A model generated the notes under the pieces. That model had not been told where the DNA came from and did not search any database. It worked only from the letters and a program-made list of their open reading frames with translations. DNA of 60,932 nt from positions 1 through 60,932 of the forward strand of contig BAAIJX010000085.1 of the NCBI GenBank assembly GCA_054600435.1, read 5' to 3'. The translations under genes and the position numbers were made by a program. This document shows, piece after piece, positions 20,748-47,513 of this stretch. Within the stretch, counting starts at the first letter, position 1; each line of letters starts with the position of its first letter. This DNA is from Neophaeotheca triangularis (taxonomy: Eukaryota).

Positions 20748-22859
20748 ATGGTGTCGCTGGTACAGTGTGTGCTCCGGCGCACGCGAACAGTTCCGGCCCG
20801 CCACCACCCTGCTCTCCTCTCCCGCTCTCAAACCCGAACGATCAACCTTCAGCACGAGGAAATCGCTCGCGCCCATGAAGACAACAACAAATATCTCCAA
20901 GGGGAAGACGCCAAAGGCATAAAGAATGTTCGCCACAGGAGCCTAGAGTTTACTTCTGCGCTCGAAGCCACCGAAGCCACGCTTGAAAGCCTACGACGCC
21001 CAAAACTACTCCCACACCATGCCGGCCTTAACCAACAAGCCCTGCTCCAGAACTTGGCGACTCGCGTTGGGGTCATGAAACCTATTCTCCACGACATTCG
21101 CAAACATTTGGATGATTTGGAAGGACAAGAGTACCCGTCTCCGCGGCAGGAGAGGGAGGGTTACGCCGCCGAGTTGGCGGGTATGACGCCCGAGCAGCTG
21201 AAGGGTGAGTTGAAGGCGCTTGAGTATGAGCGGAGTAGTAGTAAGGCTGGCTATGAGCGGAGTTTGAAGAAGATGTCGGAGGTGGCGGATGGGTTGGCCA
21301 AAGAACATGGGATTGAGGACAGGGTTAGGGATTGGGAGCAGAGGGCAAGGAAGGCGACGAGCTCGGTGAGTTTTGCTAGACAAGAGGTGGAGGAGGCCGG
21401 GGGGCATTTGGCTGGTTTTAAGGATGCCGAGTTGGCGGACGAGTCGACTGAGTCTGGGGATGATGAATCTGACGGGATATCGTTGGGTTTCAATGACGAC
21501 GTTGACGGTGATGTTGACGAGGGTGGGCTTCAGGGCTTCAAGGATGCGGATCGGGGGAACAATCCACAGGCGTCCAATGCCAAACGGCGTGGAAGCGTAC
21601 GATCGTTGGTGCGGGAGAAGCGAAGAGATGCCTCGCTCATGGTTCGGAAAAAGCTTTCTGTGCGCACACCAATGGGAGCCCGTGAGGTCGAGAACTACAA
21701 TCTGGAGACCCTAGAAAAGACAATCAAAGAAGCAGATCAGGCCTCGAAGTTGCACGCCAGCAAAGTGGTCGACTTAGCAGACAAAGCCTCAAGCGATGTT
21801 GCAAAGGATTCAGGTCAAGCCCTACTTCGGGCAGAGCGCGAATTACACGATGCAACGAGGATGTATGCAGCTGCGCTATTTCGTGACTGGGTGATGAATT
21901 GCAGTGGCGATGTTAACTCGCCTGATCACATGAGGGAGCGAAAAGATTTCTGGGACTCACTCAGCTTTAATGACAGCAAAAGGCCCAAAAGAGCAATACT
22001 CACCATGTTGACCAAGGACTGGGAGGCTTCTTTTCTTCCGGAAACGGGCAAGATGGAATTTTCTTTCAAGTCCAGACTCGCTCGAATGGTATCTGCGAAG
22101 CAACGGTTCATCATAACGCCCGCCAATGCCAGGTCTCTGCTTCCCGCTGATCAAGTGGCCAAAATCGACGTTGACGAACTCATCGAGACTATCAAGCGCA
22201 CGCAATTCCTCTTGCTTCGTGAGGAGCCTTCACAAGCAGACCTGAAGAATTCGTACAGCATACCGGATGATAGGGTCGTTGAGGTAGCAACTCAGAAGGC
22301 CGCACTGTTGGACGCACGCACGATGCTTGCGGCCGTCTATCATGACAAGTGGATCTCACAGACAAGTGAAGGCGCTCCTCACGGAGAGCTCAACGATAAG
22401 GAGTCGAAAAAGTGCCGGGTAAATGACTTACGCCAATTGAACTCGAAGCTGCGTAGCTATCATAGCGTGATTGAAATATTGCGCTTAGGATGGGGTGTGA
22501 GCGTTCACTCCAAGACTGGCACGCTTAAGTTTCTCCAGGAAGAGAGCCCTATAAAGCAACCCGAGCCGAACGGAAACGTGACGGCCGAGAACGACAGCGA
22601 TCAAGGCGCGGCTTCCGCATCCACTTCCACTTCCGAAGGCGACCACCCTTCTCCCGCACCCCCTGGCTCTTGGGCCGACCGGGCAAGTCCCCTGCCGGAG
22701 CAAAATCACCCCAAGCCCCAGCCTCCGATGTATCAACAACAAGCCGAGATCGCCCCTCCCAACCAACCTGCTCGGCAGAAGTCCGAAGCATCCGCGGACT
22801 GGGCGGAGTCCTTGAGGGCCCTAGATGAGGGGATCAAACGAGACACCGGGCGTGGTTGA
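20748..22859 (+). CDS. Hypothetical protein with coiled-coil region, acidic linker and two ~125-aa repeats; possible mitochondrial presequence
   Basis: Long open ORF (first ATG at 20748); Arg/Ser-rich acid-free N-terminus; no family recognised. Confidence 0.75.
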   Translation: MVSLVQCVLRRTRTVPARHHPALLSRSQTRTINLQHEEIARAHEDNNKYLQGEDAKGIKNVRHRSLEFTSALEATEATLESLRRPKLLPHHAGLNQQALLQNLATRVGVMKPILHDIRKHLDDLEGQEYPSPRQEREGYAAELAGMTPEQLKGELKALEYERSSSKAGYERSLKKMSEVADGLAKEHGIEDRVRDWEQRARKATSSVSFARQEVEEAGGHLAGFKDAELADESTESGDDESDGISLGFNDDVDGDVDEGGLQGFKDADRGNNPQASNAKRRGSVRSLVREKRRDASLMVRKKLSVRTPMGAREVENYNLETLEKTIKEADQASKLHASKVVDLADKASSDVAKDSGQALLRAERELHDATRMYAAALFRDWVMNCSGDVNSPDHMRERKDFWDSLSFNDSKRPKRAILTMLTKDWEASFLPETGKMEFSFKSRLARMVSAKQRFIITPANARSLLPADQVAKIDVDELIETIKRTQFLLLREEPSQADLKNSYSIPDDRVVEVATQKAALLDARTMLAAVYHDKWISQTSEGAPHGELNDKESKKCRVNDLRQLNSKLRSYHSVIEILRLGWGVSVHSKTGTLKFLQEESPIKQPEPNGNVTAENDSDQGAASASTSTSEGDHPSPAPPGSWADRASPLPEQNHPKPQPPMYQQQAEIAPPNQPARQKSEASADWAESLRALDEGIKRDTGRG

Positions 22860-24634
22860 AATTGAGGCTGGGCAAGTTCTGGCTACCTATAGGTCAGCTT
22901 AGAAGTATCAGCTCCTAAGGCGCCGAGGCAATGTGATCTAGGTACTGCTTCACTTGAAGTTTGGCTGCGTAGCTTTCAAGGAGCTCGATCCATGCGGCTT
23001 CGCACGCTCGCAGGTACACCTTGTATCGCGAAGCCGGGTTACTTCCATGTCCTCTGAGCGACTTTGGCTGATGTTCTCGAGCGAGACTTGGACGGCTAAG
23101 CCCGTCGCTCCCCATGGCATCGTAGCCAAGGCAGAATCATCGGAACAGATCGGACGCCATGCGAGATCTGCGGCCATTGAAATGTGACGATCGTACAGTG
23201 CTGTTCCGTCGAGGTATCAATCGGGCTGTTTGATCGTGATAGCGGCTACAGAAGCGTTTGGAAGTCGGAAACTCGGCGCTTTAGATGGATGGGGAGCCGG
23301 TCAAGTAGTTGATCATGCCTCCTGCGGCTGGCTTGCGCCTGCTTAGCTTAGAAACGAAGGATTGGAGCCCATGTAGTGGGCGCTGACGCCAGGGATGCAG
23401 GGTTCGGGGCATTGAGTGAAGCAGCTGAGACTAGTTCACGTAACACCAGTGGAGCAGTGTGCCAAATTTGACCACTCAACCCAGCTCTAGATTACGGTGC
23501 TTAGAGCACATTGTTAAGTGACTACGAGCAGGTGATTTCCGTTTCGAACCCGGCCCTTCTGGATCGTGAGCTCCTGAATCGAAGTTGCCCCAGTGCGTGC
23601 AGATTGGCACCAGCGTTACGGCGGCGTGCAATGATTGTCTTTCTCTCCTCTTTACGATTTCATCAGTGCTTTTGCTGCCAAGATCAAGAGCTTGGAGAAG
23701 AGGAAATCACAACAAGAGTCCCACGAGTGAGCTGATGTTACTGGGAGTGACTGGAACCCATCTTGCGCATCGACGCCCGAACCCGACTCACTCCGCTGCT
23801 GAACCAATTCCAGGCGACCTGTTGGGTAAACGTTGGAGGCCACGAGCTTAGGATGAGCCATCGGATATGGCTTTCGGAGCCTCGACAGCGTTGAGCCAAA
23901 GACCTAGAGAGACGCGAAAGCGATTGGTGAGGCAATCGCAGACAACGATACTAGGTGTTGGTCTCCCCGGGCAGACTGAACTCAAGGCAGCGTTGAAAGA
24001 GAAGGACTAGTCAGCGATTTGCGGCAACCATGGCACTACACTCAGCCTAGGGCATCTAGACCGCGAGCGAATGAGGGGAGAGAAAGCAATGTAGGAAAAC
24101 GCGTCACCAAGGCGAATCTGTGCGTGCCTCCGTCCTGGTTTACAGCACCTCACTACCCATCCGACGGCGACCCGCCTACCAAAAAACCTCTTGACTTTAC
24201 AGCAAGTCTCAAAACGCAGCAAATCATCGCATGGCGCAAAGTCATACTCGCATGGTTCTGGTACTGCATTCCGGCATGCGTTCCTGTTATTGACCTCGCA
24301 ACAACCCCCTGCAAGTCTTGCATGGAACCCAGTCGGCTTGTGCCTGAAAAACTATGTAATCTTGATCCAGCGGGATATCAAGAAGCACTTGGGTAGCTGC
24401 TCCAGTATGATGCTGTATCTCAGTGGTTTTGGGAGACGTATCTCCACCCTGCTTCGAACATTGGCCACACGGCGTCCAGTCATCGACTCGAGAGCGACCT
24501 CCTCAAACTCATACCGAAGGTTTGGAGGACTTGCACGGGCATGAGACATCCAACCTTGGCTCAGTTGATGGTCCTGAAAACAAGCTTGTTCCACGGGGCT
24601 GCGAGAAAAATTCGTTTTTTTAGAAAAATGCTAC

Positions 24635-25575
24635 CTAACTCTTCTTGAACATAGTCGTAGCACCGGCCTGGTGGTTCGGGAAGATCAAGCTATCCGCCAC
24701 CACAACATTCTCCCGACGGCTTGCAGTGAAGACGACAATCTCGGCAATGTCATCTCCAGTCAAGGGCTCGCATCCGCTATGTTATGGTCAGTATTTACTA
24801 GTTCTGCATCGATTTGAACCAGGGCATGCTTCAACTTACGCGTACACGGCGTCGGCCTTGCTCTTGTCGCCGTAGAACCGCACCATTGAGAACTCCGTCT
24901 CGACTTGACCAGGGTCAACGCAGATCACGCGAACGCGCTTGTTGATCAGCTCCTTGCGCATAGCCTCGGTGAAGGCTCGCACGGCGGCCTTGGTCGCGCA
25001 GTAGATTGAGCCGTTGGGGTAGGGCTCGCGGCCAGCGATACTACCAATGTTGATGATGTCACCAGCGCCGTCGCCACCGTTGCGTGCCAGCATCCCCGGC
25101 AGAACTTCTTGGGTCATATTGACGAGACCGGTGACGTTGGTCTGGAACATGGTGTTCATGTCTTCCTCGGCGATCTCGGGCGCTCTGGCTACACCTTTGA
25201 CCAAGCCGCTGGGAACAATCGTTAGTCGCTTAGGCCCATGGGATATGTAGACAGGATTTCAGTCTCTTACGCATTGTTGACCAGGACATCGATCTGCTGG
25301 AATTCTTGGGGTAATCTGTTGACGAAGCCTTTGATCTCGCTCGATTTGCTCACGTCGAGCTGTACTGGCAGCACCTTGACGCCGCTGCCGACCTCTTTGC
25401 CGATCTCCTCTGCTAATTGCTTGAGGTTGTCGACTCGTCGGGCTGTGAGGATGAGTTTGAGGTCTGAAGGGCTTGTGCGTGCGAACTCAAGGGCTGTTGA
25501 TTTTCCGATGCCAGATGAAGCGCCGGTGATGAGGACGGTCTTGCCTGATAGGCGCTTGGAAGCTGCTGATGCCAT
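24635..25575 (-). CDS. NADP-dependent 3-hydroxyacid dehydrogenase (YdfG/YMR226C-type SDR), 3 exons
   Basis: Exons 25575-25271, 25208-24840, 24776-24635; TGASSGIG, NNAG, YCATK, PGQVETEFS, PLTGDDIAEIVVF..SRRENVV..FPNHQA. Confidence 0.9.
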
Positions 25576-25893
25576 GATTGATGTGAGGTATTTGTGTGCC
25601 TTTGATTGATTTGGTGGTGTAGGAAAATATATTGAGATGGAATGCTGTGATGTTGATAGTGTTGGAAATGCTGATACTTGCCAATGTCTGGAACAGCGAT
25701 TAGCTGGCCATTTATTTCACTACCAGGGGAGCAGGACCACTATACTATGGGTCGCGTTTCCGTCTGTCGTTTGGCCACTTGTCGTCTGTTGAAGCAGCAA
25801 GAGTTCTCCATGCGAGCATAAGGTACCGCGAGGATTCCGGAGTGGGTTTGTATCTTCCTATAATTCCGCCGATTCGCAGCCGGTTCCGTTTCC

Positions 25894-25904
25894 GTCGGAA
25901 AAGC
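25894..25904 (+). promoter_or_regulatory. Candidate Zn2Cys6 site GTCGGAAAAGC (SDR/aldolase divergent promoter)
   Basis: Identical motif also at 25959-25969 (-) and 27862-27872 (+); 10-mer core at 30047-30056 (-) and 31833-31842 (-). Confidence 0.55.
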
Positions 25905-26258
25905 CATGGAAGTCTACCTTATCCGACATGCCGGCGTACAGTGGGAGGCTTCTATGCTGCTTTTCCGACGCCCTCAAAACGAGTAGGAGGTAATGATGTG
26001 GTCCGGGTACAGTATCTGAGTACCCGCAATCTACGAACAATTGCCGTGGGGTTGCGGAGAGGCGAACATTGGCGAGTAATTGCGAAATGCTTAAGTTGGG
26101 TTGAGGGGATTGTTTTGTTTTCGCTATCATTTTATCGAACTGATTGCCTCCAAAAACGACCTCAACTCTGTAATCCGTGAATCAGATTCTCCAAGACCAA
26201 TCATACTCAATATCAATTAGATACCTGACTACGAGCGTATTTGTCAATTATCTCAGCC

Positions 26259-27299
26259 ATGGCAGTAATTGAAGCCCCGTCGGGCCTCCAAAACGGTGCC
26301 GCCCACACCAATGGATCGAACGGATCGGCCGTCAATGGCTCAACGACGAGACAGTCATCAAAAGTACCACGAGGCGGTGTTTGGACGCCAGCCATTACCT
26401 TCTTCGACCATGACACCGACAATTTGAACCTTGAATCGCAAGCAAAGTACTACTCCTACCTCTCAAAGAGCGGCCTAGGAGGGCTAGTCATCCTGGGAAC
26501 CAACGCAGAGACATTCCTTCTCACCCAAAGCGAGCGCAAACGACTAGTACACTGCGCCAGACAAGCATGCGGTCCCGACTACCCCATCATGGCCGGAGTT
26601 GGCGGCCACAGTACCAAGCAAGTACTCGAATACCTCGACGACGCCGCCTCGGCAGGCGCAGATTACGCTCTCCTCCTTCCCCCGGGATACTTTGGCAAGC
26701 AAACGACCCCCGAGGTCATCGACAGCTTCTTCCATGATGTCGCGACCGCTAGTCCCCTACCCATCGTCATCTACAACTTCCCCACAGTCTGCAACGGCAT
26801 TGATCTCGACTCCGCGACTCTCGCCCGCCTAGCTGCCTCACACCCAAACATTGTCGGCGTGAAGCTCACCTGCGGCGCCGTGGCCAAAATCACCCGTCTT
26901 TCCGCCGAGCTCTCGCCCGAGCGCTACGCAATCTACGGCGGACAATCAGACTTCCTGATCGGCGGTCTGGCCTCGGGAGCCGCAGGCACCATCGCCGGGT
27001 TCGGAAACGTCTTTCCCAAGACCCTAGTCAAGATCTACGATCTCTGGCAAGAAGGCCGTTTCAAGGAGGCCATGGAACTGCATCGGAAAGCTGCGCTCGC
27101 CGAGCAAGGCTGCAAGGCGGGAATCGCGACTGTCAAGTACGCGGCTTCGTACACTACTGCAGTGGCTGCGGGAATCGATAAGAGGGCTGCGATGAAGCAG
27201 CTGAAGCCCAGGCGGCCTTACAAGGAGCCGGGAGAGAAGGAGAAGGCCAACATCGACCGCTTGATCCAGCCGTTGATCGAAATTGAGGCTGCGCTTTGA
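26259..27299 (+). CDS. DHDPS/NAL-family class I aldolase (2-keto-3-deoxy sugar-acid aldolase, GaaC/LGA1-like)
   Basis: GTNAE motif, IYNFP, Schiff-base Lys in GVKLTCG; intronless. Confidence 0.9.
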   Translation: MAVIEAPSGLQNGAAHTNGSNGSAVNGSTTRQSSKVPRGGVWTPAITFFDHDTDNLNLESQAKYYSYLSKSGLGGLVILGTNAETFLLTQSERKRLVHCARQACGPDYPIMAGVGGHSTKQVLEYLDDAASAGADYALLLPPGYFGKQTTPEVIDSFFHDVATASPLPIVIYNFPTVCNGIDLDSATLARLAASHPNIVGVKLTCGAVAKITRLSAELSPERYAIYGGQSDFLIGGLASGAAGTIAGFGNVFPKTLVKIYDLWQEGRFKEAMELHRKAALAEQGCKAGIATVKYAASYTTAVAAGIDKRAAMKQLKPRRPYKEPGEKEKANIDRLIQPLIEIEAAL

Positions 27300-27861
27300 G
27301 TAGTGATAGGGCTAGCTGTTCACGTACAGATGGATTTATGACTGATAGTGACCATAAAATCGCTCCGTGTGCTTCAATGTAGCACTTTGATAGATCTTGA
27401 AGATATCCCGTCACTCTTGCCCGACGCCTCTCAGCAAGTACATGCCAATACCTTTTTTCAGCGAGTTCAGGGGTTTGCATAGCAAGTAGCCCAACAGAGA
27501 AGCTCTCAACGAATCCAATAAGTGTTCGAGACAAGGCTCAACAAACAATCATTGGATTCGGTTTGGTATTGATGGATCTATGGCGGTATGCAAATGCCGG
27601 ACGAATTGGACCAAAAGCTTTTGACAGCCCGCGATTAGCGGGGTCTCGAAACAGCCAATAGGAGACTAGCGTGTCTGAGGTGAAGTCCATTCCCGACCTC
27701 ATCTCGTCAGCCCCTCCACCGTGCTCCAAGGAGTAATGTGTATTTTACGTAGTGATACTCCGAAGTACGGCTATCTCACATATTCCATTTCGCGGGAATG
27801 ATCGTCGGCATTTTGTGATCGCCAAAGGGTGGCAGCTAGGTGAAGGGGGTGCATTCGCGGT

Positions 27862-27872
27862 GTCGGAAAAGC
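27862..27872 (+). promoter_or_regulatory. Candidate Zn2Cys6 site GTCGGAAAAGC (dehydratase promoter)
   Basis: Followed by the variant GACGGAAAAGC at 27882-27892. Confidence 0.55.
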
Positions 27873-28278
27873 TAGGGCGGAGACGGAAAAGCCTCCAAGG
27901 GTGGGGGCTGGGAGGGTGAGAGCACAGACGGGGCGTAACTGGGGTAGACTGCCAAGCATACCAAAGTTCCGCAAGACTCTCCGCTGATCCATCCAAAACA
28001 GCTTCACTTTCACTGCTGCGGCACCCACGGAAGCAGGCTGCTCATCTGGCGGCCTCTTTGCCCCTAAAGCGGCGAGATCGGAAAGGCGCTCGGACATGGC
28101 AGTATCCATTGGACTCCTCAGGACGGAGAAATGCTCCAGCGCCTATGTAAGCGTGTCAATAGAAAGCATACATGTAAGTCGGAGCATCCAGGTAGCTGCC
28201 TTTCTTGCCCTTCGCAACTCTCTCAGCGCTTCGAAGCAACTCACACTTACTCCACCTACTCCGCGTTAATCAAACGCC

Positions 28279-29571
28279 ATGGCTACCTCCGCGCCGACAA
28301 TCAAGGACATCGTGATCACACCCGTTGCTTTCCACGACCCCCCGTTGCTCAACGCTGTTGGAGTCCACGAACCTTATGCTCTCAGGAGTGTCATCGAACT
28401 CATTACGGACCGTAAAGATGGAGAGGAAGCAGTCTACGGCCTCGGCGAGTCGTACGGAGACTCCACGCACATCTCGCGCCTACAGAAAGCAGCCGAGAGC
28501 ATCAAAGGACTCGGCGTCTATCAGACAAACAAGATCTACCAAGCATGCGTGGACTCGCTCGTGGACGACAAATCCACTGGCGGTGACGGTATGGCGGGCA
28601 TGGTCACAACAGCATCGGCAGCGGACAAGGTGTTTTCACCATTTGAAGTGGCGTGCTTGGATATCCAGGGGAAAATTGCCGGTTTGCCTGTAAGCGATCT
28701 GCTCGGAGGGCAAGTGAGACCGAAGGTGGACTACTCGGCCTATCTATTTTACAAATGGGCTGCACACCCGGGAATGGATGAAGACGAGTATGGCGAAGCT
28801 TTGAATCCCGAAGGACTGATCAAGCAGGCTAAGAAGATGATTGATGAGTACGGTTTCAAAGCGATCAAGGTCAAGGGGGGTGTATTCCCGCCTCAAGAAG
28901 AAATCGATGCCATAAAAGCGCTGCGCAAGGCTTTCCCGGACTTGCCGTTGAGACTGGATCCAAATGCCGCATGGACTGTAGAGACGTCAAAGTGGGTCGG
29001 CAAGGAGCTCGAAGGCATCGTTGAGTATCTCGAAGACCCCGCACCAGAAATAGAGGGCATGGCAGAAGTGGTAAAGGGAGTCTCAATGCCCCTTGCCACT
29101 AACATGTGTACCGTGTCGTTCAGCCATCTGCCTCCCACAATCGCACAGAACGCCGTCCAAGTCGTCTTATCAGACCATCACTTCTGGGGCGGACTCCGGA
29201 AGTCGCAAACTCTCGCCTCCATCTGCTCAGTCTGGAACATGCGCTTATCGATGCACTCCAACAGCCACTTGGGGATCTCACTCGCCGCTATGACGCATTT
29301 AGCCTCGGCGACCCCGAATCTCGACTACGCATGCGACACCCATTGGCCGTGGAAACGCCGGGACGAGGACGTGGTCCAAGAGGGGGCTCTCAAGTGGAGA
29401 GACGGCGGAGTCGTAGTGCCCACGGCACCGGGATTGGGTATTGAGCTTGATAGAGAGAGGCTTGCTGCGCTGCATGAGCTGTACTTGAAGTGCGGACTGA
29501 GGAAAAGGGACGACACTGCGTACATGAGGAAGTTCCAACCAGATTTCTCTGCTGCATTGGCGCGATGGTGA
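28279..29571 (+). CDS. Glucarate dehydratase-like enolase-superfamily enzyme
   Basis: KVKGG (KxK), LDPNAAW, YLEDP, ATNM, DHHFWGG, MHSNSH, DTHWPW match the GudD subgroup signature; intronless. Confidence 0.9.
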   Translation: MATSAPTIKDIVITPVAFHDPPLLNAVGVHEPYALRSVIELITDRKDGEEAVYGLGESYGDSTHISRLQKAAESIKGLGVYQTNKIYQACVDSLVDDKSTGGDGMAGMVTTASAADKVFSPFEVACLDIQGKIAGLPVSDLLGGQVRPKVDYSAYLFYKWAAHPGMDEDEYGEALNPEGLIKQAKKMIDEYGFKAIKVKGGVFPPQEEIDAIKALRKAFPDLPLRLDPNAAWTVETSKWVGKELEGIVEYLEDPAPEIEGMAEVVKGVSMPLATNMCTVSFSHLPPTIAQNAVQVVLSDHHFWGGLRKSQTLASICSVWNMRLSMHSNSHLGISLAAMTHLASATPNLDYACDTHWPWKRRDEDVVQEGALKWRDGGVVVPTAPGLGIELDRERLAALHELYLKCGLRKRDDTAYMRKFQPDFSAALARW

Positions 29572-30046
29572 GGGGTGTGGCAGGCTAGCTGCTCCAGCAT
29601 TCTGAAGCGTATCGATCCAATTCACCTTGCCTTCTCCTGAGCATGATGCGCCACCCACGGAAATCTCTGAGCTCGTGACTGTGAAAAAGGCCTCGGATAA
29701 TGATGATACGTACCCGGCCCTATAGACGACACGGATTGGGACTGGCTCACCATCGATGACAACGGACTGATGGGGTGTGTGCGATCCGCTCGTTTGCAGG
29801 CATCCGCCTAAACAGTGAGACGGCAATGACTACCCAGGAGCCAGTGCCAGAATGCAGTTTTGCCATGACTGGGATCCTGGCAGTGCCGTACTTTAATTCC
29901 TTCCGGAGCCCGCCGCCTCGCGATATCCGCAAGTTCCGACGGCCATCAAAACATATCCGATTCGTCAAGCGAAGCGGAACCTTTGACTTTCCCATCGCCA
30001 ACACCACATCTCCGCAAATTTTGCGGGTTTACCAGGTGCTAGGACA

Positions 30047-30056
30047 CTTTTCCGAC
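30047..30056 (-). promoter_or_regulatory. Candidate Zn2Cys6 site GTCGGAAAAG (MFS promoter)
   Basis: CTTTTCCGAC on the + strand, about 300 nt upstream of the MFS ATG. Confidence 0.5.
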
Positions 30057-30360
30057 ACTTGCGGATGCGTAGTTTGCCACTAGCATGCACCCCGCACTAC
30101 TGAGAGCCAGGGAATGCCTTCCTCTTGCGTGAGGCGGGCCATGCGCAGCGGAGCTGGGGTCCCCAGATGTACCACATGGTGTCCGCCCATGGGGGTAGGC
30201 TTGGTCGATGGAAACCTCATATAACTGCCACCTTTGTCCCCGGATCCAACCCAGTAGCTCCCATCCCATCGATTCAATAGAAAACCCTTCTCTGAACTAT
30301 CCTTTCGCGAGACACTCTCGGTTCTGAGCCACCAGCACAATCAACAACACCATCAACGAT

Positions 30361-32149
30361 ATGGCCGGGATCCAGGTTGAGAAGCCGGACATTGTCCAAT
30401 TGGAGGTGGGCATGGTCCACGGCGACGACGGCGCTTCCAAACAGCACAATGTCGAACACATCGATGGCTTTAATGTCTTGGGTCTCAACCAAGAGGACGC
30501 CGACTTCTACCGGAACTTCTCGAAGAAGGAACGCGATGTTGCGAGACACAAAGTCGACATTCGACTCGTTCCCTTACTCGCCCTGCTTTATCTCATGTCC
30601 CATCTCGACCGCAGCAACATCGGGAACACAAAAATTGAGGGTATTGGTAAGGGATATAGTCCAAGATGCATCTGTGCAACCATTTCAGCGTGCTGACTTG
30701 ATTCAGACCAGGATCTAGGGATCAGCGACGTTCAGTGGAATGTCCTCCTTTCACTATTCTTCGTCCCGTACATCCTCCTCGAGATTCCATCGAACATTAT
30801 CCTCAAGCGCTTCAACCGCCCGTCATACTACATGGGTATCTTGGTCACCTGCTGGGGAATTATCATGACCTGCCACGGTGTTGTCACCAACTACGCTGGT
30901 ATCATGGTCCTACGCATCCTGCTCGGTGTCTTTGAGGCTGGTTTCTTCCCCGGTGCCGTCTACTTGGCTTCTTTCTGGTACATGCCAAAAGATCTTGCCG
31001 CCCGCATCTCGTGGTTCTACTGCTTCAGTGCCCTTTCTGGTGCTTTCTCCGGCATGTTGGCCGCTGCCATTGCCCAGATGGATGGCGTTGGAGGCTACGA
31101 AGGCTGGAGGTGGATCTTCATCTTGGAGGGCGTGGTCACTGTCGCCGTCGGTGTTGCCACATTCTTCATCATGGTCGACACTCCATCTCTCAGCACCAAA
31201 TGGCTGAAGCCGGAAGAGGTCCGATTCTTGAATTTGCAACACTTCGTTAAGCAAGGTGGTCGCTTCGCAGACGAGACCCAGGAGCGGCGCAACATTTGGC
31301 ACGATCTGAAGGCCGTCCTCTTGAACTGGAGGCTTTGGCTTCTAACGTGGGTCCAGTTCTGCCAGTCTGCTACTGCCTATGGTAAGTCAACACCTCCGTC
31401 GTTGCGCTATCGTGGCCCACCACCCGCAGTGCGAAAACTAAATAAGTATTTACAGGCACGAAGTTCACTTTGCCTACGCTCACACGAGCCATGGGTTTCG
31501 AGAGCACAAATGCTCAACTCATGTCCGCCCCTCCGTACGTACTCGGCGCCATCGCCACCATCGTTCTCGCCAAGATTTCCGATCGCGTCTACTGGCGTAT
31601 GCCGTTTGTCGTTGGCCCTTTCGCCGCAATTTGCACAGGCTTCGCTATTATGCTTGGACTCCAAGGAGACTTTGAGAACCAGCTTGGTGCTTCCTACTTC
31701 GCTGTTTGCATCGCCTGCATGGGCATCTACCCTGCTGCCCCTGCTCTCATTGCCTGGGTGGGTAACAATTCCGCTCCGTCCTCGCGTCGGGCAGTCGCTC
31801 TGTAAGTTCCCCCTTTTTGGAAAAAAACTTTCCTTTTCCGACCCCATGTCTCAATATATTCAAGCTAACACTAGACAGTGCGACTAACATATGTATGGGA
31901 AATGTGGGAGGCATCATGGGTAGCTATATGTTTTACGATTCTGACGCTCCCGCATACAATACCGGTTTCGGTTTGTCGATTACCTTCGGAATCACGGGCT
32001 TGCTCGCGGCCGTTGCGGCAGAGCTTAGCTTCAAGTGGGCCAATAGCAAGAGGGACAAGCTAGACGAAGAGGAGATCCGTGCCAGGTACGACAACGACGA
32101 GCTCATGAGGATGGGTGACAACAACCCCCTTTATAGGTACACTCTGTAG
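30361..32149 (+). CDS. MFS transporter, anion:cation symporter (Dal5/Tna1-like) family, 4 exons
   Basis: Introns 30647-30706, 31382-31455, 31802-31878; LDRSNIGN, RILLGVFEAGFFPG, GWRWIFILEG, and a C-terminal YRYTL. Confidence 0.92.
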
Positions 32150-33450
32150 AGAGTTACCAAAAAGCTTCAGCGAGGAGTTTGGGATGTGCCGCAAGATCAA
32201 TGCGAGGGCTCGGAGTTATGGATACGGTCTTTGAGACTTCAGGGAGCCGACCAATCGTTCTCGGGACGGTGTTCCGAAAAATCACCCCTGAGGCACTTTT
32301 ACTTTTGCTGCCGGCTGGCTTTTATGATTTACGAGTGTACATACTACGCTACCCTAACATGACCGCCTTTTCTTCGGCTTTCATTGCGACTTATCACATA
32401 CAATTCGTTCGCCATAGCGCGCGAATTAGATGCATTCAGGGGGAATGAAATGAGCTGAGGTGTGACGTGACGGGCTTGGCATAACCGGCTCATGCCCTTC
32501 TGCGGAAACTCGTACATTCACATCAAACGTAGGACCATCGCATATGTCGCCTGCATTTCAATCGACTGTCGCCAATGCTCTCGGATCCACCTCTTATAAC
32601 CATTCCGCTGTCCCTTCAAACACCACCGCCGTCATTACGCAAGACGGGGCTTTCAGCCGTCGACTGCACATCGGCAATCCATCTTCTCATCTTCACACGA
32701 CTTGACGGCCACCTCAACTCTCGAGGGTAGGTCTAGTCTGTCTAATATACGGTCGGCCTTTGTGATCGCGGCCTGGAAGTCGACATGATTCGCACAGTTA
32801 CTGACGGCCGTAACCTCAGGACAAAGGACTATCCAGGAAGCCCTGGCACGTTATCCTAGCACCACGGCCGGACAGTTAGCCTACCCATGCAGCTATGTGC
32901 TTTTGGTAACAGCAAGCACGCCACCACCCTCAACCATGACCGACATGTCGCATAGTGCTGGATCAAGGCTACGACATCGATAAGACCTACGGCGACCCCC
33001 CCGACTCTGGTATTGCACAACCGCCACCGCTCGGCTCTCCTATCATCCCAAAGCGACAGTAGCTCAACCCTACGCCCTCCTTCCCCGTCCCACTCGAGAC
33101 AAAGACTAGCGAAACGCTTCCACCGTCGCCGGGATCCTCCTTGTCTAACCCAACCGTCAGAGTCTCGTCATCAGAGCTGAAAGAAGCGGAGGATAAGTAG
33201 CATAGCATAGCACCCGAAAAAAAAAAGTACCACATTTTGCCCTCTCTCCTCCGAAACCGCGGAGACGGTGGGGAACTACTATGTAGGCGTAGATGGAACC
33301 GGACAGGGGACGTTTACAACTGCCGGAGGAGAAGCGTTGTGTAGATCAACCAGGCCCCCTCCCCAAAAAAAAAAGACAAGCACCGTACCCAGACGCTCAG
33401 AACGCTTCACCAATAACAAAACCCCCCCACCTGCATCCCTTTTTCCACCC

Positions 33451-35789: not shown

Positions 35790-37310
35790 CTACAACTTGG
35801 CATACACAGTAGCCACACTCCCCGCCATCTCAACAAGCGTACTCTTATTCCGCACCCAAGCCTCCAACCCCCTCCTGCCATTCTCCACCCCCAACCCACT
35901 GCGCTTCCACCCCCCAACCGACATCTCCGCGGGTGAATCCCCCCAAGTGTTAATCCAGCAAATCCCCGCTTCCAATTTCCCGACAACAGTATGCGCCAGA
36001 TTCAAGTCGCTCGTAAAGACACCCGCCGCGAGGCCCATCGGAGTGTCGTTGGCGCGAGCCAGGAGGGGTGGGAGCCAGGAACTGCTTGGTCCGGTGGAGG
36101 AATAGGGCAGCAGGCACATCACCGGGCCGAAGATCTCGTCGCGGGCGATGAGCATGTCGTCGGTGACGTTTGTGAAGACAGTTGGTCGGGTCCAGTAGCC
36201 GGCTTTGTTGGCGGACGGGGGAAGATCGGGTGGTGCGCCGAGGCCACCGGTTAGGAGAGTGGCTTTGTCGGTCTCGAGACCGTGGCGGATGTAAGAAGAG
36301 ACTTTTTCGTGGTGCGGGCGGCTTACGAGGGGCCCGAAATTGGTCGCAGGGTCCATGACGTCTCCGGCGCGGATGTGGGACATTTTTTGCAGGAGTATAC
36401 GTTCGAAATCTTGGAGCCGGTTGGAAGGAACGAAGACGCGGGTGCCGTTTGTGCAGACTTGGCCCGAGGAGTAGAAGTTGGCCATCATGGCGCCGTCGAC
36501 GGCGGTCTCGAGGTCGGCGTCGGGAAGCACGAGCAGTGGGGATTTACCGCCGAGTTCCATGGTTGCGTATTTCATGCCCGCTGCCGCGGCCGAGGCGACT
36601 TTGCTGCCAGTGCTGACTTGGCCTGTGAAGGAGACTTTGGCGATTCCTGGGTGGGAGGTGAGAGCGCTGCCGACGTCGCCGGCTCCGTGGACTACGTTGA
36701 AGACGCCTGGGGGCACGCCCGCTTCGGTGTAGATTTCAGCTAGCTTTAGGGCGTGCAAGGGAGTGAACTCGGAGGGTTTGTAGACCATGCAGTTGCCGGC
36801 TGCGAGGCAAGGGGCGGATTTCCACAAAGCGATTTGGATGGGGTAGTTCCAGGCACCGATGCCTGCGCAGACGCCTAGGGGAGCTTTGGTGGTGTAGACC
36901 CAGGCGTCAGGGCGGAGACGAGTGGTTTCGCCATTGAGTCCACCTGAGGCGACGAGGTTGGCATAGTATTCGAGGACGTCGGTGCCGGTTACGACGTCCA
37001 CAGCTGAGGTTTCCGAATAGGGTTTTCCCGTGTCGCGGGTTTCTATCTCAGCTAGTTGGTCGTTTCGTTCGCGGAGGAGGGCTACTGCTTTGAGGAGGAT
37101 TCGAGATCGCTCCATGGGGGAGGTTTCAGACCATGATGGAAAAGCTTTGTGGGCTGCGTTGACGGCCGCGTCTATGGAAGAGTTGTCCGCTTTGCAAACG
37201 TCCGCGAGGGGGTTGTTGTTTGCCGGGTCGATGGTTTGAAAGGTGGAGGAGGTTGTTTGACGTTTACCGTCGTAGTAGAGGGGTTGAGTCTCGTAGCGGT
37301 GGTTAGACAT
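35790..37310 (-). CDS. Betaine aldehyde dehydrogenase
   Basis: [23 protein letters not shown] (BetB-like), [25 protein letters not shown]-terminal AKL; divergent from choline oxidase. Confidence 0.93.
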
Positions 37311-37989
37311 GATCACGACAGGGGTTTGTAGATGTTGTTGAGAGAGCTGGTATTGTTCTAGATCAATCAAATAGGAGTCGAGTGGATGCTGCGGATAAGT
37401 GATGACCGTTCAATGGTCAACAATAATAATGCTGGAGCTGATGTCGCCAAGGGGCTTGCTTTTGTCTAGCTTGCCACCCTCGCTGTCCGCGCGATGTGCC
37501 GAAGGTTTGCCTCAGTCCTGGCCTGGGCTTTCTGAACAGCCCGAGAGGTTTGTGGCAGTGGATGTGGTAACTTTTGATTGTTGTTATTGATGTCGTGCTT
37601 CTGCCAACTGCTTAGAAGCGGGTGTAATAAGCCTTTTTAGCGGTGCAAAATGCAAAGGTAGACAGTAGCAGGAGGTGCTACTACTAGAAGGTCAGATGAA
37701 CAATAGTGCAGGGTCCGAGAGTCGAGCGGGCACGCTAGGGCGTATAGGTATCAAAAGAGGCCGAACCCGATGCGGCAAAAAGCACGTGATGTTGCGCCGC
37801 GAGGACGATCGTGTCTAGTGTACAGACGTCACAGCAAGATTGGCAAGGGCATATAAAGGTATGCTGTGTCCTTGAATCGTGGAAATTGAGGCAGTATATG
37901 GTGAATGTGGTGATATGTCGAGACATGAGGTTCTGCTGAAGTGAAGGTGTCGTCGAGTGCCAATGCTAGCACCAAGCCGGAAGAGGTTA

Positions 37990-38007
37990 GGGGGGGGGGG
38001 GGGGGGG
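37990..38007. repeat. G homopolymer (~18 nt) in the BADH/choline oxidase divergent promoter
   Basis: Direct reading of the sequence. Confidence 0.85.
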
Positions 38008-38691
38008 AAGAAAAGATGTCAAGGTACTAGTAGTTACTGCGAGTACTAAGTTACATAGTACCTAGAGTTAACCGCAGCCAACCGCGTGTGCTAGTGGATT
38101 ACCTTATCATCATCATCAGCCACTGCTGTTGCTCCCAAACGACCACCAACTACCTCCTCCTACTACTACTACTACTAGCAGAACCACTACTACTACTACC
38201 ACTACTACTACTGGCATCTTTCTTGCTCTCATCGGCCTCCACTCGGACCTTCTCATCCTCGTCTACCCTTGCAAGTCTTCCCTTTCTACCTGGACGACAT
38301 CGCTTGGCGTCGGCTCTTTCCACGCTAAATCGCGTGATACGCAAGAGGAAAAGCGCAATCATCTCGCCCTTGTCGTCCTCCTCGTCGTCGTCGTCGTCGC
38401 TTGCCTCCCGTCTGGTCACTCCCCTCTCCTCTTGTGGCTGTGAAACTTGACACCCATACAACTGTATCCACGCCTTCAACAAGGTTTTCTGCCAATCATC
38501 GCCAATCGGTGAGGAATAGCTTGCTTATCTACTCCGTCTCCCCCCCTTCTCTTGCTTCTTACCTTCCCTTTCTGCTCCTCTCTCAAACTCCTCTCTACCA
38601 CTTACCTCAACACATCCTCTCTCCTCTTCTCTTCTCTTCTCATACCACACCTCAGCCTCCTTGGTAGCTCACCACCACCACCACCACCACC

Positions 38692-40380
38692 ATGGCCAGC
38701 GAGAAAGCAAACATTTCCACCACCCCTGGTCCTCTCCCCACCACCGGCACCACCGATCAGCTTCCTCAATCCGACGTCGACAGCTATGACTTTATCATTG
38801 TCGGAGGAGGTACCGCCGGCTGCGTTATTGCAGCCCGCCTCTCGAAATACCTCCCCAATAAAAAAGTCCTACTCATCGAAGCTGGTCCCTCCGACTTCAT
38901 GGACGACCGCGTCCTTTTACTCAAAGACTGGTTGAACCTCATCGGTACCGATCTCGACTACGACTACGGCACTACCGAGCAGCCTATGGGCAACTCCAAC
39001 ATCCGCCATTCCCGCGCCAAAGTCCTCGGAGGCTGCTCGAGCCACAACACCCTCATTTCCTTCCGACCCTTTGAATACGATGCTCAAAGATGGCAGGCAC
39101 AAGGTTGCAAGGGATGGGACTTCAAGACATTCACACGCGTATTGGACAATCTCAAGAATACGGTACAACCTGTACACGAGAGGCACAGGAACCAGCTGTG
39201 CATCGACTGGGTGAACAGCTGCTCGAAGGCATTGAACATCCCCGTAATCGAAGATTTCAACAAAGAGATCAAAGACACAGGCGCGCTCAAGGAATGCGTG
39301 GGCTTCTTCAACGTAGCCTACAACCCAGACACCGGCCACCGTAGCAGCGCAAGTGTAGCTTACATCCACCCGATCCTCGAGCAAAAGGAAACCCGCCCCA
39401 ACCTCACCATCCTCACCAACGCCTGGGTGAGCAAAATCAACGTCACCAACTCCTCCAAAGTCACTGGCGTCAACCTCACCCTCAAAGACGGTAGCAAACG
39501 CACCCTCCGCCACCGCGCCGAGACCATCCTCTGCGCCGGTGCAGTCGACACTCCCCGCCTAATGATGCTCTCCGGTTTAGGCCCCAAAAAGCAACTCACC
39601 GACCTCGGCATCCCGCTAATCAAAGACATGCCCGGCGTTGGCGAAAACCTCCTCGATCACCCAGAAAGCATCATAATGTGGGAACTCAACAAGCCCGTGC
39701 CGGCCAACCAAACAACCCAAGACTCGGACGCGGGCATTTTTCTCCGCCGCGAGGTCCCCAACGCCGCAGGCTCCGACGGCGCCATCGCAGACGTCATGAT
39801 GCACTGCTACCAAATCCCCTTTGTCTACAACACGGCGCGCCTAGGCTACGACAGCCCCAAAGACGCCTTCTGCATGACACCCAACATCCCTCGCCCACGC
39901 TCGCGCGGCCGCATCTTCCTAACCTCCTCCGACCCTAGCGTCAAGCCCTCTCTCGACTTCCGCTACTTCACCGACCCGGAAGGCTACGACGCGGCCACCA
40001 TCGTCGCGGGCCTCAAAGCCGCCCGCGAAATCGCCAAACAAGCCCCCTTCAAAGACTGGATCAAGCGCGAAGTCGCCCCAGGGCCCAAACTCACCACGGA
40101 CGAGGAACTCTCCGAGTACGGCCGCCGCGTCGCTCACACTGTCTACCACCCCGCTGGCACGACGAAGATGGGGGATGTGAGCGGAGATTCTTACGCGGTC
40201 GTGGATCCCGAGTTGAGGGTCCGGGAAATGGAGGGTTTGCGGATTGCCGATGCCGGCGTTTTTCCCGATATGCCGAGTATTAATCCTATGCTCACGGTGC
40301 TGGCAATTGGGGAGAGGGCGGCGGAGATGTTGGCGGAGAGTTGGGGTGGCAAGACCGAGGGGGTCAGGGCTAGGTTGTAG
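38692..40380 (+). CDS. codA: Choline oxidase (GMC oxidoreductase)
   Basis: GGGTAG, RHSRAKVLGGCSSHN (His of the covalent-FAD region of choline oxidases), GENLLDH, TVYHPAGT, INP; C-terminal ARL. Confidence 0.93.
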   Translation: MASEKANISTTPGPLPTTGTTDQLPQSDVDSYDFIIVGGGTAGCVIAARLSKYLPNKKVLLIEAGPSDFMDDRVLLLKDWLNLIGTDLDYDYGTTEQPMGNSNIRHSRAKVLGGCSSHNTLISFRPFEYDAQRWQAQGCKGWDFKTFTRVLDNLKNTVQPVHERHRNQLCIDWVNSCSKALNIPVIEDFNKEIKDTGALKECVGFFNVAYNPDTGHRSSASVAYIHPILEQKETRPNLTILTNAWVSKINVTNSSKVTGVNLTLKDGSKRTLRHRAETILCAGAVDTPRLMMLSGLGPKKQLTDLGIPLIKDMPGVGENLLDHPESIIMWELNKPVPANQTTQDSDAGIFLRREVPNAAGSDGAIADVMMHCYQIPFVYNTARLGYDSPKDAFCMTPNIPRPRSRGRIFLTSSDPSVKPSLDFRYFTDPEGYDAATIVAGLKAAREIAKQAPFKDWIKREVAPGPKLTTDEELSEYGRRVAHTVYHPAGTTKMGDVSGDSYAVVDPELRVREMEGLRIADAGVFPDMPSINPMLTVLAIGERAAEMLAESWGGKTEGVRARL

Positions 40381-45132: not shown

Positions 45133-47513
45133 ATGGAAGAAGGTCACCATTCACCTCAGAAACGCAAGCGTACTACCGAGAGAGCCAGAGTGACGCGTGC
45201 ATGTGACCGCTGTAAAAGGTTTCCAACACCGCCCGAGCCAAGAGCCCAAGATATCACAGACGGCTAACAGAACATTAACCCCATGCAGGAGGAAGGTCAA
45301 GTGTGATGGACGGCAACCCTGCCAGATCTGTTCCAAGGTCGATGCGAGCTGTACCTTTGATACCACATACTCCAGAGGAACGGCGCCTCCGATACCGCAG
45401 GCACCAGCTCAAGGTTCACAGATAGTCCCAAACGATGGTGCCACCGCGATACAGGCTGCAGGTGGCGCTACAATCGGACCAGATCTCTTGAATGGCGCTG
45501 TATATCAACCTCACACTGGCAACCACAGTACTTGTCATGCGCCACCGATGGCATCCCCATCAGTCGCGGCCTCCAACCATAAGTCCCCCGCCGACTCTCA
45601 AACGGCTGGTGGTCTCCACGGCCAGTACATAGGCCCAGCTTCTGGCGTCTCCTTCCTCCAGCGTGTCCAGAACCGTCTAGGTCAGGCTGTCTCCTTCTCT
45701 CACCCTGACAGCATCTTCACTTTCGGCGATCGGCCACTCGTGAAATCAGAAGCAGACATGTTTATGATTCCCCGGGAGGAGGCGCAGAGATTATTGGACA
45801 GGTACTTTGATTTTGCAATGCCTACTTACCGCTTCTTGCACCAACCCACCATTCAAGCGTGGTTTGGGGAGTTTTACGAAACCTTTGGGGTGATGCGCGA
45901 CGCTTCTACAGCGCCAGCTAAGGTCGCCTTGTTGTTGATGGTCCTCGCTCACGGTAGGGTGTATATGCCTGATGATGAGAAGCCCGGGCCATCTGATCTG
46001 AGGTACCTGCCCAAAATCAGTCAGGGAGTACAGTATTGTTACTGACTCTTGCGTAGCAATCGTCTCTATCTAGCAGCTGAGCAGCAACTCCAAAAGGAAA
46101 GCGGCCCAATACGCCTGGCTAGCATCCAAAGCCGACTAACACAGTGTTTTTACCTCCTTACTCAATCGCGCATCAACCATTGCTGGAGTCTATTCGGCAC
46201 AGTCTCTCATTTAGCGCTAGCGACTGGGCTTAACAGAAGTAGACGAAGTGATTCTCAATCTGGAGTCAATCACATAGAGGTCGAGTGTCGCCGACGATCT
46301 TTCTGGTGTGCGTACACCCTAGATGTGTACCTATCTATCGTTCTCGGGAGGCCGCAGCTTTTCCACGACGCCGACATCGATACCGAACTACCAACATGCA
46401 TCGAAGACAAAGAGTTGACAGAGAACCATGCGGGCCCACCTGCATACGTCGGTGGACCATCGATCATGCTTGCAGTTCTCGCGCAGTTCAGGTTAGCATA
46501 TCCAGCCCCAAATCAGAAGCAAAGCTAACAAAACAGCCTCGCCCGGATCGTCAAGTCCATACTGCGCGAACTACTAGACCCTCTAAGACCCATCGCGTCA
46601 AGCCACAGGACCGTCTTGACGCAACGATACTCCCAGGAATTGCACGATTGGCGCAACAATCTCGCGACTTTCCTCGACGCTGATAACGTGAGCGCCTCGT
46701 GGCTTTTACCAATTTTCCAACGACAACGCAACGTCCTGAACCTTACGTATTGGCACGCTATCATTCTCACCCACCGCCCCTTCCTCCTCAGCAACTTCGC
46801 CGCAGGCAGCCGGCAGTCTAATGCAGCGGGCGACAACGACATCGAAACTGATAGCCAGCAAGTCGCCGACAGCGTGCAGCAATGCTTGACGGCGGCCATG
46901 AGCACGGTCAACACCATCAATGACATGATGCGTACCCGGCAAATCTCACGAGTCTTCTGGGTAAGTCAGGAGGCGATTGCGCCATCCGTCCTCCGCAGCA
47001 CACCCCTCATCGCACCCACCCATCCCCGACATACTAACCTCCAACACCAACCAACAGACAGCCGCCTACTTCGCCTTCACAGCCAGCATAGTCCTCTACA
47101 TCCACGTGCTGCAAAACCGCAAACCCGCCCTCACCCACCACAACGACTACCTCTCAGCAGCAACCCTCTGCCAATCGCACATCTCCAGCCTCGCGGACAA
47201 AGGCTCCCTGCCGGAACGGTACTGCCTGCTACTGGAAGAACTGCGGTCGGAAACGGTGCGAACGCGTTCAGACCACCAAACCCCGAACCCGGCCACGCAG
47301 ACCACGACCCAGCAGCAGCAGCAGCAGCAAACGACTTTTGCGCCACCGCAGCAGCAGCAGCAGCAGGCTCCGGCGGATTTCGCAACTTTCTTCCCGCCTT
47401 CAGCGACGGGCGAAGTCCAGGGAACTGTCGAGGATTGGGGGCAGTTCGCCGACATGGTTGCGCTTGGCTTGGGGAATCTGGATGGCTTTCTGAATGAGGA
47501 TTTCTTGCTGTAG
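45133..47513 (+). CDS. Zn(II)2Cys6 transcription factor with fungal TF middle homology region, 5 exons
   Basis: RACDRCKR|RKVKCDGRQPCQICSKVDASC; ECRRRSFWCAYTLD..LGRP; introns 45219-45288, 46003-46056, 46492-46536, 46961-47057. Confidence 0.92.

Follow-up and report, generated by a model that had tools for sequence, protein, structure and literature searches.

A CGGAWAA(G) promoter element and a candidate Zn2Cys6 activator of a putative fungal sugar-acid gene cluster

A ten-letter word, GTCGGAAAAG, recurs around four neighbouring genes of putative sugar-acid metabolism in Neophaeotheca triangularis, raising the question of whether it marks a shared regulatory site, which protein might read it and which pathway it might serve. 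The original prediction, made on the 60,932-nt stretch of DNA analysed here (the window), had proposed a Zn2Cys6-type element in every promoter of the cluster, co-regulation of its genes and an undescribed regulon motif.

Clustering of the 10-mer

The cluster comprises a short-chain reductase (SDR) resembling the 3-hydroxy-acid dehydrogenase YdfG (24635..25575, minus strand; 271 aa, two introns), a DHDPS-family enzyme (26259..27299, plus strand; 346 aa, PF00701), a glucarate-dehydratase-like enolase (28279..29571, plus strand; 430 aa, intronless, PF13378) and an MFS transporter (30361..32149, plus strand; three introns, with ambiguous exact splice sites). Five exact copies of GTCGGAAAAG were found at 25894 (+), 25960–25969 (−), 27862 (+), 30047–30056 (−) and 31833–31842 (−), as predicted. 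Flank comparison showed that copies 1–3 share one 11-mer, and the rest of the window holds no exact copy. The computed expectation of 0.12 copies per window agrees with the earlier estimate of ~0.1, and 100 shuffles gave two copies at most. Allowing up to one mismatch, the window contains 14 matches, 7 of them outside the cluster. The predicted excess of TCCG/CGGA half-sites was borne out (12, 14 and 18 versus 4.7, 6.8 and 5.5 expected).

An exact genome-wide count gave 85 copies of GTCGGAAAAG in the 25.4-Mb genome, 5 of them within this 6 kb, and 122 copies of the reversed word. Every other place in the table of 85 copies, as read from it, holds at most two copies per ~8 kb. As a post-hoc control, we searched for any dispersed, non-simple 10-mer with five copies in 6 kb: none of 600 fifth-order Markov simulations reached five copies, and in real DNA (60 other 10-kb genome regions) 1 of 300 overlapping windows did, with a match that resembles a long repeat. 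The flanks of the 10-mer copies are unrelated to one another. The clustering of five GTCGGAAAAG copies is confirmed as real.

The promoter copies lie in three intergenic regions, and the predicted presence in every promoter holds with the qualifier that these regions serve four genes. Promoter site 1 (25889..25903, plus strand, with the 10-mer at 25894) belongs to an everted CCG-N-CGG pair that has an A/T tail at either end, an arrangement that recurs in the DHDPS promoter of the fungal contig L003. The divergent SDR/DHDPS promoter also contains site 2 (25918..25927, minus strand), a sixth promoter site of variant form, GTCGGATAAG, that the original prediction had overlooked, and site 3 (25960..25969, minus strand), an exact 10-mer; the three sites are ~290–390 nt from either ATG. 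In a second sample (X2), a 374-nt piece over sites 1–3 carries seven changes, none inside the sites, among 40 of the 278 differences; a zero of this kind would arise by chance in roughly half of such cases and is evidence neither way. The enolase promoter carries an exact 10-mer ~415 nt 5′ of the ATG (27862..27871, plus strand) and, 20 nt past it as a direct repeat, the predicted variant (27882..27891, plus strand); a CGGAWA pair 22 nt apart lies within the best-conserved block of contigs L001 and L063. The MFS promoter has an exact 10-mer ~307 nt 5′ of the ATG (30047..30056, minus strand) and an uncertain distal CGGATAAT at ~667 nt (29694..29701, plus strand), which matches the XlnR/AraR consensus as well.

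The fifth exact copy (31833..31842, minus strand) is inside MFS intron 3 (31802–31874/31878), in a pyrimidine-rich stretch; the L003 gene, read by eye, has no intron at the corresponding position. Gene bodies contain two CGGAWAA words in 5061 nt versus 0.84 expected, and the copies that lie in the intron and in the SDR coding region are both consistent with background. The function of the intron copy is doubtful, and it may have arisen by chance.

A shorter core in orthologous promoters

Conservation was assessed in seven orthologous upstream regions (4220 nt) from five fungal contigs and four lineages, two of the contigs being close relatives (94% identity). The predicted conservation applies to a 7–8-mer core, CGGAWAA(G), and not to the exact 10-mer, which has no copy in any of the seven regions. 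CGGAWAA occurs 11 times versus 0.70 expected, a count reached in none of 2000 dinucleotide shuffles of these regions; the Poisson background was this genome with coding DNA included, and the shuffle control is free of coding DNA. Because CGGAWAA was derived by relaxing the window word after the orthologous sequence had been seen, it is fairly judged by its rank in the de novo search, where it came first among 75,327 degenerate 7-mers. CGGAWAAG, taken from the window alone, occurs five times versus 0.26 expected, and the reversed-word controls gave counts of 1 and 3. Per-lineage P values for the core were 0.085, 7e-6, 0.003 and 0.007. The lone L002 site is insignificant by itself, and one L063 site is absent from L001. 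The L003 DHDPS region had included an SDR remnant; both of its sites stay when the remnant is removed.

In the window, the three cluster promoters contain 3, 2 and 2 CGGAWAA sites, seven in total, with the CGG core in non-coding DNA. Among 720 background windows of 800 nt, two sites occurred in 6 and three in none, and among the 15 other genes of the window two have one site and none has two. With 1576 occurrences genome-wide, CGGAWAAG alone is unspecific. Across the 18 sites (7 in the window and 11 orthologous), 12 read CGGAAAA, spacing and orientation vary, and the commonest partner offset is shared by only 4, so that a fixed two-CGG spacing of the Gal4/RhaR dimer type was not found. Everted pairs account for one of the 7 window sites and one of the 11 orthologous sites, leaving 16 of 18 outside them; the DHDPS promoters of the window and of L003 each contain their CCGACGG core, and everted CCG-N-CGG with A/T tails occurs at six places genome-wide. 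CGG-N8-CGG and CGG-N8-CCG show no enrichment, CGG-N11-CCG is absent from the window promoters, and CreA-type sites are slightly enriched (42 versus 31). We conclude that CGGAWAA(G) is very probably a real regulatory element of the cluster.

A candidate regulator and the pathway it may control

The original prediction had overlooked a candidate regulator, the Zn2Cys6 transcription factor P0121 (45133..47513, plus strand; 704 aa), which lies 13 kb from the cluster in this genome with unrelated genes between. Its orthologues are found inside the cluster in many ascomycetes, and L001 and L003, the two fungal contigs long enough to show it, each have one directly beside the cluster. Judged by eye, the longest contigs of the transcription factor and the enolase are equal in size in 19 of the 22 named species common to both match lists. 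All nine pairs looked up, which were chosen for such equality, are separated by 2–9 accession numbers. Cluster members in Fusarium are 4–5 accession numbers apart; in Aspergillus multicolor the two genes are on differently sized longest contigs, and the tags of the DHDPS and transcription factor genes of F. solani-melongenae are 188 apart. A Zn2Cys6 gene is conserved beside the pathway genes, in a RhaR-like arrangement. The orthologue in A. nidulans is AN0619, and that in F. graminearum is probably FGSG_03649.

The genome contains at least 95 zinc-cluster matches. An intact zinc-cluster pattern is present in 66 of 120 matches to the transcription factor, all 66 continuing with a Y-x-R-G linker and then a proline-rich stretch. 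The structural model of P0121 has no helix over residues 46–146, so that the zinc cluster is not followed by a coiled coil, which fits single-site binding; this helix-free stretch is modelled at low confidence and is weak evidence on dimerisation, and a distal dimer surface may exist. P0121 has no sequence match in the PDB. Autoregulation as a conserved feature was rejected: the promoter of the transcription factor carries a site in L001 and lacks one in the window and in L003.

Bacterial glucarate genes include GlucD/GudD, the aldolase gene GarL and the reductase gene GarR, or follow a KdgD route. The enolase, single-copy in this genome, matches structure 3va8 (E=2e-230) and retains the GlucD motifs in its alignment to 4g8t, which we take to be active-site motifs with catalytic roles and which are invariant across 38 fungal sequences. 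It reaches 253 bits against the glucarate dehydratase equivalog TIGR03247, under the cut-off of 828.7, and falls in a subfamily that is sister to GlucD, nearer 3vdg/3vc5 than E. coli GlucD. The DHDPS-family enzyme, a proposed keto-deoxy-glucarate aldolase, is closest in structure to 3qfe. It is under every NCBIfam cut-off, KdgD included, matches no curated family, and has a KdgD score below its DapA and HpaI-type scores. By locus tags, its fungal counterparts adjoin the enolase or the transcription factor in many fungi, and their labels are automatic only.

The SDR is proposed to be a tartronate-semialdehyde reductase; YdfG/YMR226C have glycerate-related activity. Its exon 2 has YdfG as best NCBIfam match, under the cut-off, and is 81% identical to P0424 of Exophiala, which adjoins a DHDPS gene. 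The SDR is 68–76% identical to an SDR fused with the transcription factor in three Fusarium gene models, and in L003 it is present as a broken remnant only. The MFS transporter, which has an orthologue in L003, best matches the D-galactonate transporter family, under the cut-off. The cluster of this genome contains no aldehyde dehydrogenase gene. At least 80 metagenome loci were listed, five being fungal-like by identity, GC and neighbours. Among the non-fungal loci listed, 37 of 75 have a KdgD-like gene near the enolase, and all three such genes scanned best match KdgD.

Dispersed regulon members were sought in 13 regions at paired sites and the closest paralogue of the transcription factor, and in 12 further regions; the ORF starts listed for them, viewed by eye, revealed no obvious sugar-acid genes, and most placeable sites are inside coding DNA. 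Viral contigs yielded no relative, and Rfam gave no match in 24400–33400.

Our main reading, with a probability of roughly 0.6, is that CGGAWAA(G) is the site of a pathway-specific Zn2Cys6 activator, likely of the P0121 family, of a conserved aldarate cluster. The DNA-binding region of P0121/AN0619 would bind CGGAAAAG; we consider it rather likely that P0121 itself binds CGGAWAA(G), and it would bind singly and activate the cluster. Several single sites in any orientation, 80–520 nt 5′ of each ATG, would allow the activator to induce all four genes (for transporter, dehydratase, DHDPS-family enzyme and reductase) at once in the presence of a sugar diacid or an intermediate. The transporter would take up glucarate or a similar aldarate, which would be dehydrated to keto-deoxy-glucarate and be cleaved to pyruvate and tartronate semialdehyde, the latter being reduced to glycerate; this assignment of substrate and route is moderately probable. 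The predicted shared Zn2Cys6-type element and co-regulation thus gain support from the conserved core and the cluster-linked Zn2Cys6 gene; the 10-mer as the conserved unit and a function for the intron copy do not.

The word was found post hoc, most of its 85 genomic copies are scattered, and its intron and SDR coding copies are at background level, as would be expected had it been chosen after the fact and clustered by chance or through local duplication. The simulations without five copies, the unrelated flanks and the top rank of the core in independent fungi largely refute this, and we hold it very improbable. A different reading keeps the site and regulator and changes the chemistry: the substrate would be galactarate, idarate, pentarate or hexonate, or the DHDPS enzyme would be a dehydratase/decarboxylase yielding 2-oxoglutarate semialdehyde. 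This is unlikely, given the retained GlucD motifs, a 3-hydroxy-acid-dehydrogenase-like gene in place of any aldehyde dehydrogenase gene, and a KdgD score under those of DapA and HpaI-type models, even though the sister-subfamily enolase, the KdgD of bacterial relatives, the automatic labels of the fungal DHDPS enzyme and the SDR remnant in L003 point towards it.

Alternatively, a Zn2Cys6 carbon regulator of broader scope and not linked to the cluster (from the XlnR/AraR/FUR1 family, AmyR/COL-26 or another) might occupy the site, with the linked factor using another site or acting elsewhere. This genome has a zinc cluster at L168 that is presumably XlnR-like; three of the 18 sites match CGGNTAAW, and everted CCGACGG is found in the DHDPS promoter of the window and L003. 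In the available parts of their sources, the sites of XlnR (CGGNTAAW), AraR (CGGDTAAW), AmyR (CGGAAATTTAA) and FUR1 (CCGACGG with A/T flanks) resemble the element here. The 12 CGGAAAA sites, however, break the XlnR/AraR consensus, the N8 spacings are unenriched and 16 of 18 sites are outside everted pairs. No site lies 5′ of a galactonate-dehydratase-like gene (L199), other inspected genome regions are without sugar-catabolic targets, and a global regulator leaves the lasting linkage between factor and cluster unexplained. We regard such a regulator as improbable and retain the pathway-specific activator.

Comparison with known systems

Tentatively, the locus may represent a glucarate (aldarate) regulon that is complete and widespread among fungi, combining a bacterial-type dehydratase with a fungal aldolase, reductase and transporter and its own AN0619-family activator reading single CGGAWAA. 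In the available text of the sources, fungal hexaric-acid catabolism was stated as unknown in 2016 (PMC5153877), and a 2025 review gives the route for bacteria only (PMC12076931). If true, this reading would supply a missing fungal route and a ready eukaryotic glucarate sensor, show producers of glucaric acid through which fungal genes their product is lost, and offer an inducible factor–site pair. The finding points to a pathway of four genes together with a site and a candidate regulator, and since A. nidulans, a laboratory fungus, has an orthologue of the latter, the question is directly testable. In the literature searched we found no description of this set of regulator, site and cluster and no AN0619-type deletion affecting induction or growth on the substrate, and the literature matches listed for the motif words include no fungal-promoter paper. 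As for the predicted undescribed regulon motif, the regulon part stands; the style of the motif resembles AmyR, XlnR and FUR1 sites.

The following comparisons draw on the accessible portions of the cited papers. The bacterial glucarate pathway, which in E. coli runs via an aldolase and then a reductase, shares a GlucD-like enolase, a sugar-acid transporter and the proposed aldolase-then-reductase logic, whereas the system here is fungal, with a proposed DHDPS-family aldolase and SDR reductase and putative Zn2Cys6 control (PMC12076931). Galactarate catabolism in A. niger is likewise a case of aldarate use that a fungus can induce, and it involves induced transporters along with a transcription factor and an MR/MLE enzyme; its needed genes encode an AMP-dependent ligase, an aldo-keto reductase and an FAD oxidoreductase, and galactarate use was not blocked by deletion of the MR/MLE gene (PMC5153877). 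A Colletotrichum glucarate dehydratase is reported as a bacterial transfer; no match of it to this enolase family was established (PMC4320630).

XlnR and AraR share one CGG with an A/T-rich tail; the tail here is AWAAG, and with only three of 18 matches the sites do not follow their consensus (PMC8313289). AmyR has the same general form, but its tail is in none of the sites here (PMC5468973). XlnR, AraR and AmyR also differ in that the targets here are one small cluster. The Trichoderma reesei sugar-acid pathway regulator FUR1 shares CCGACGG with A/T flanks, the form of the everted DHDPS-promoter site, but is an 876-aa XlnR paralogue with fucose-gene targets, whereas the everted form accounts here for just 2 of 18 sites (one of 7 in the window and one of 11 orthologous), so that its element is not the main site; its zinc cluster and length differ from those of P0121 by eye, and this genome, in which 30 of 95 zinc-cluster loci were viewed, may have a FUR1 orthologue (PMC12370193). 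RhaR/PDR-1 and the LRA cluster, where RhaR was found by genomic association, share a CGG-based site and linkage of a Zn2Cys6 gene to a sugar-acid dehydratase of the enolase family; RhaR (AN5673) binds CGG-N11-CCG, and a coiled coil is predicted to follow its zinc cluster, whereas here CGGAWAA is single with free spacing and the orthologue is AN0619 (PMC4245848). The regulatory logic itself is ordinary, and systems of this sort are familiar from RhaR, FUR1 and XlnR.

Clustering of the 10-mer at the sugar-acid cluster

The original prediction had placed five exact copies of the 10-mer GTCGGAAAAG between 25894 and 31842, in the promoters and one intron of the sugar-acid cluster. All five are present, against 0.12 expected and a maximum of two in 100 shuffles. 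Allowing up to one mismatch gives 14 matches in the window, seven of them inside the cluster; the variant listed originally does lie there, but a promoter variant at 25918–25927 had been overlooked. Across the 25.4-Mb genome of 136 contigs the word occurs 85 times, with 5 of the 85 copies within 5.95 kb at the cluster. As the reversed word occurs 122 times, GTCGGAAAAG is not over-represented genome-wide.

Because GTCGGAAAAG had been picked after the fact, we ran a post-hoc control for any dispersed, non-simple 10-mer reaching five copies in 6 kb. None of 600 Markov simulations did so. A single hit came from the 300 overlapping windows drawn from 60 further 10-kb stretches of the genome, and it looks like a long repeat. 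In genome region L103 (G000:C1:700001–710000), A/T-rich words recur every ~4.6 kb, probably marking a long direct repeat or a transposon. The flanks of the GTCGGAAAAG copies are unrelated, so these do not represent a duplicated segment. The clustering of the site is real and beyond chance.

Conserved core and arrangement of the site

A metagenome scan yielded at least 80 loci, five of them fungal-like (L001, L002, L003, L020 and L063), with enolases sharing 73–82% identity, except for L001 and L063 (94%). Conservation was assessed in seven upstream regions (4220 nt) from a small sample of fungi. The exact 10-mer has no copy in these regions; its core CGGAWAA occurs 11 times against 0.70 expected, a count reached in none of 2000 shuffles. 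CGGAWAAG, a pattern derived from the window, was found five times (0.26 expected). Ranking without the window placed CGGAAA top among 6-mers, CGGAAAA among 7-mers and CGGAWAA among 75,327 degenerate 7-mers, and three of four lineages were significant on their own. One of the L063 sites lacks a counterpart in the related L001. One site was present in 14.7 kb of L003 flank outside the cluster promoters, two sites in 6 of 720 background 800-nt windows, and one site in 2 of 15 other window genes. The conserved unit is CGGAWAA(G), not the 10-mer.

The profile over 18 sites from the window and orthologous upstream regions reads (T/G/A)CGGA(A/T)AA(G>C,T,A). These sites lie in both orientations 80–520 nt upstream of the ATG, with one distal exception, and no fixed partner triplet is present across them. 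In both the window and L003, the DHDPS promoter carries an everted CCG-N-CGG pair flanked by A/T tails; the whole genome has just six places of this form. The enolase promoters of the window (27862–27891), L063 and L001 (whose sequence starts within the first site) hold two CGGAWA sites 20–22 nt apart, with GGAGA immediately 5' of the second; this is possibly a second element, if a weak and post hoc one.

The fifth exact copy lies in a pyrimidine-rich stretch of intron 3 of the MFS transporter gene, an intron without counterpart, by eye, in the L003 transporter. Gene bodies contain two CGGAWAA against 0.84 expected, the expectation for the exact 10-mer being just 0.016. A functional role for this copy is doubtful.

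Just upstream of the cluster, a 703-aa ORF without Pfam match (20748–22859) has one CGGAWAAG in its 700 nt upstream. One CGGATAAG lies ~80 nt upstream of the ATG of an aldehyde dehydrogenase gene that is divergent from a GMC oxidoreductase gene (35790–40380), a pair that resembles the fungal betaine aldehyde dehydrogenase/choline oxidase pair.

A candidate Zn2Cys6 regulator

Zn2Cys6 genes stand immediately after the enolase gene in L001 and immediately before an SDR remnant and the DHDPS gene in L003. Exon by exon, their products share 49–71% identity with P0121, the transcription factor (TF) encoded at 45133–47513, whose nearest paralogue in the genome shows only ~35%. TF and enolase had longest contigs of equal size, by eye, in 19 of the 22 named species common to both match lists. 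Nine pairs selected for this feature are 2–9 accession numbers apart (Aspergillus, Penicillium, Xylariales, Lophiostoma and Xylogone), and Fusarium pairs 4–5. Three Fusarium gene models run the TF and the window SDR's orthologue together as one gene, and in Exophiala the TF, SDR and DHDPS genes adjoin one another. Exceptions to this linkage are A. multicolor (longest contigs of differing size), F. solani-melongenae (188 tags apart) and the window genome, where unrelated genes fill the 13 kb between P0121 and the cluster. The A. nidulans member is AN0619; for F. graminearum, accession order points to FGSG_03649 as the probable member, which PMC10745421 names as a TF.

A Y-x-R-G linker followed by a proline-rich stretch is present in all 66 matches (of 120) with an intact zinc-cluster pattern, and the AlphaFold model of P0121 (mean pLDDT 75) has no helix in residues 46–146, mostly at low confidence. 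Both features fit a mode in which P0121-type proteins would bind single CGG sites while the linker reads the A/T tail, and they agree with the free spacing. We consider it most likely, at roughly 0.6, that CGGAWAA(G) is recognised by a Zn2Cys6 activator linked to this cluster, with aldarate catabolism as the cluster's role.

P0231, P0232 and P0235 belong to a second tier of homologues (~40% identity). One second-tier gene model is fused with an enolase that we take to resemble D-galactonate dehydratase. The TF family may have diverged, with separate branches regulating the use of separate sugar acids.

Proposed pathway and known systems

The SDR gene (24635–25575, minus strand) is divergent from the oppositely oriented DHDPS-family gene (26259–27299); the intronless enolase-superfamily gene (28279–29571) precedes the MFS transporter gene (30361–32149). 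FGSG_03645 belongs to the Fusarium counterpart. The enolase is 74–80% identical to proteins of many ascomycetes, with 3va8 as best structure match. Among NCBIfam families it scores best on glucarate dehydratase, yet the score of 253 falls far short of the 828.7 cut-off, which makes it a sister subfamily. In sequence alignment it retains GlucD motifs, whose residues presumably have catalytic roles. KdgD-like genes near the enolase in 37 of 75 non-fungal loci among the matches listed (three scanned with NCBIfam) point to an aldarate substrate; the best NCBIfam match of the SDR is YdfG. The substrate would be imported by the MFS transporter, dehydrated by the enolase and cleaved by an aldol reaction to pyruvate and tartronate semialdehyde, the latter being reduced to glycerate. 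E. coli follows the same order of aldol cleavage and reduction to glycerate (PMC12076931).

The enolase is closer to proteins of bacterial high-GC contigs (52–68%; L004–L080) than to E. coli GlucD, which suggests an old bacterial-to-ascomycete transfer. L003 carries a broken SDR remnant between the TF and DHDPS genes (4773–4946), with a short tandem duplication alongside; judging from this sequence, the fungus may manage without the reductase.

Sites of CGG with an A/T tail are a known style, exemplified by XlnR (CGGNTAAW) and AraR (CGGDTAAW) in PMC8313289; the site is CGGAAATTTAA for AmyR (PMC5468973) and CCGACGG with A/T flanks for FUR1 (PMC12370193). The XlnR/AraR consensus matches only 3 of the 18 cluster sites and the everted FUR1 form just 2. 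AmyR, ClrB and GaaR patterns showed no enrichment, and the promoters in the window hold no RhaR-type pairs. RhaR is likewise encoded next to a gene for a sugar-acid dehydratase (PMC4245848). By these pattern comparisons, the site set would act like a RhaR-type pathway regulon outside those of XlnR, AraR, AmyR, FUR1, ClrB, GaaR and RhaR. An A. niger galactarate study found other genes essential and termed the fungal pathway unknown (PMC5153877). In the literature searched, mostly non-subscription, neither a regulator nor a site is described for this cluster; motif databases and large supplementary tables, outside that search, may contain a motif or phenotype for AN0619 or FGSG_03649. The kind of system is known, and this proposed set of regulator, site and cluster would be a further member of that kind.
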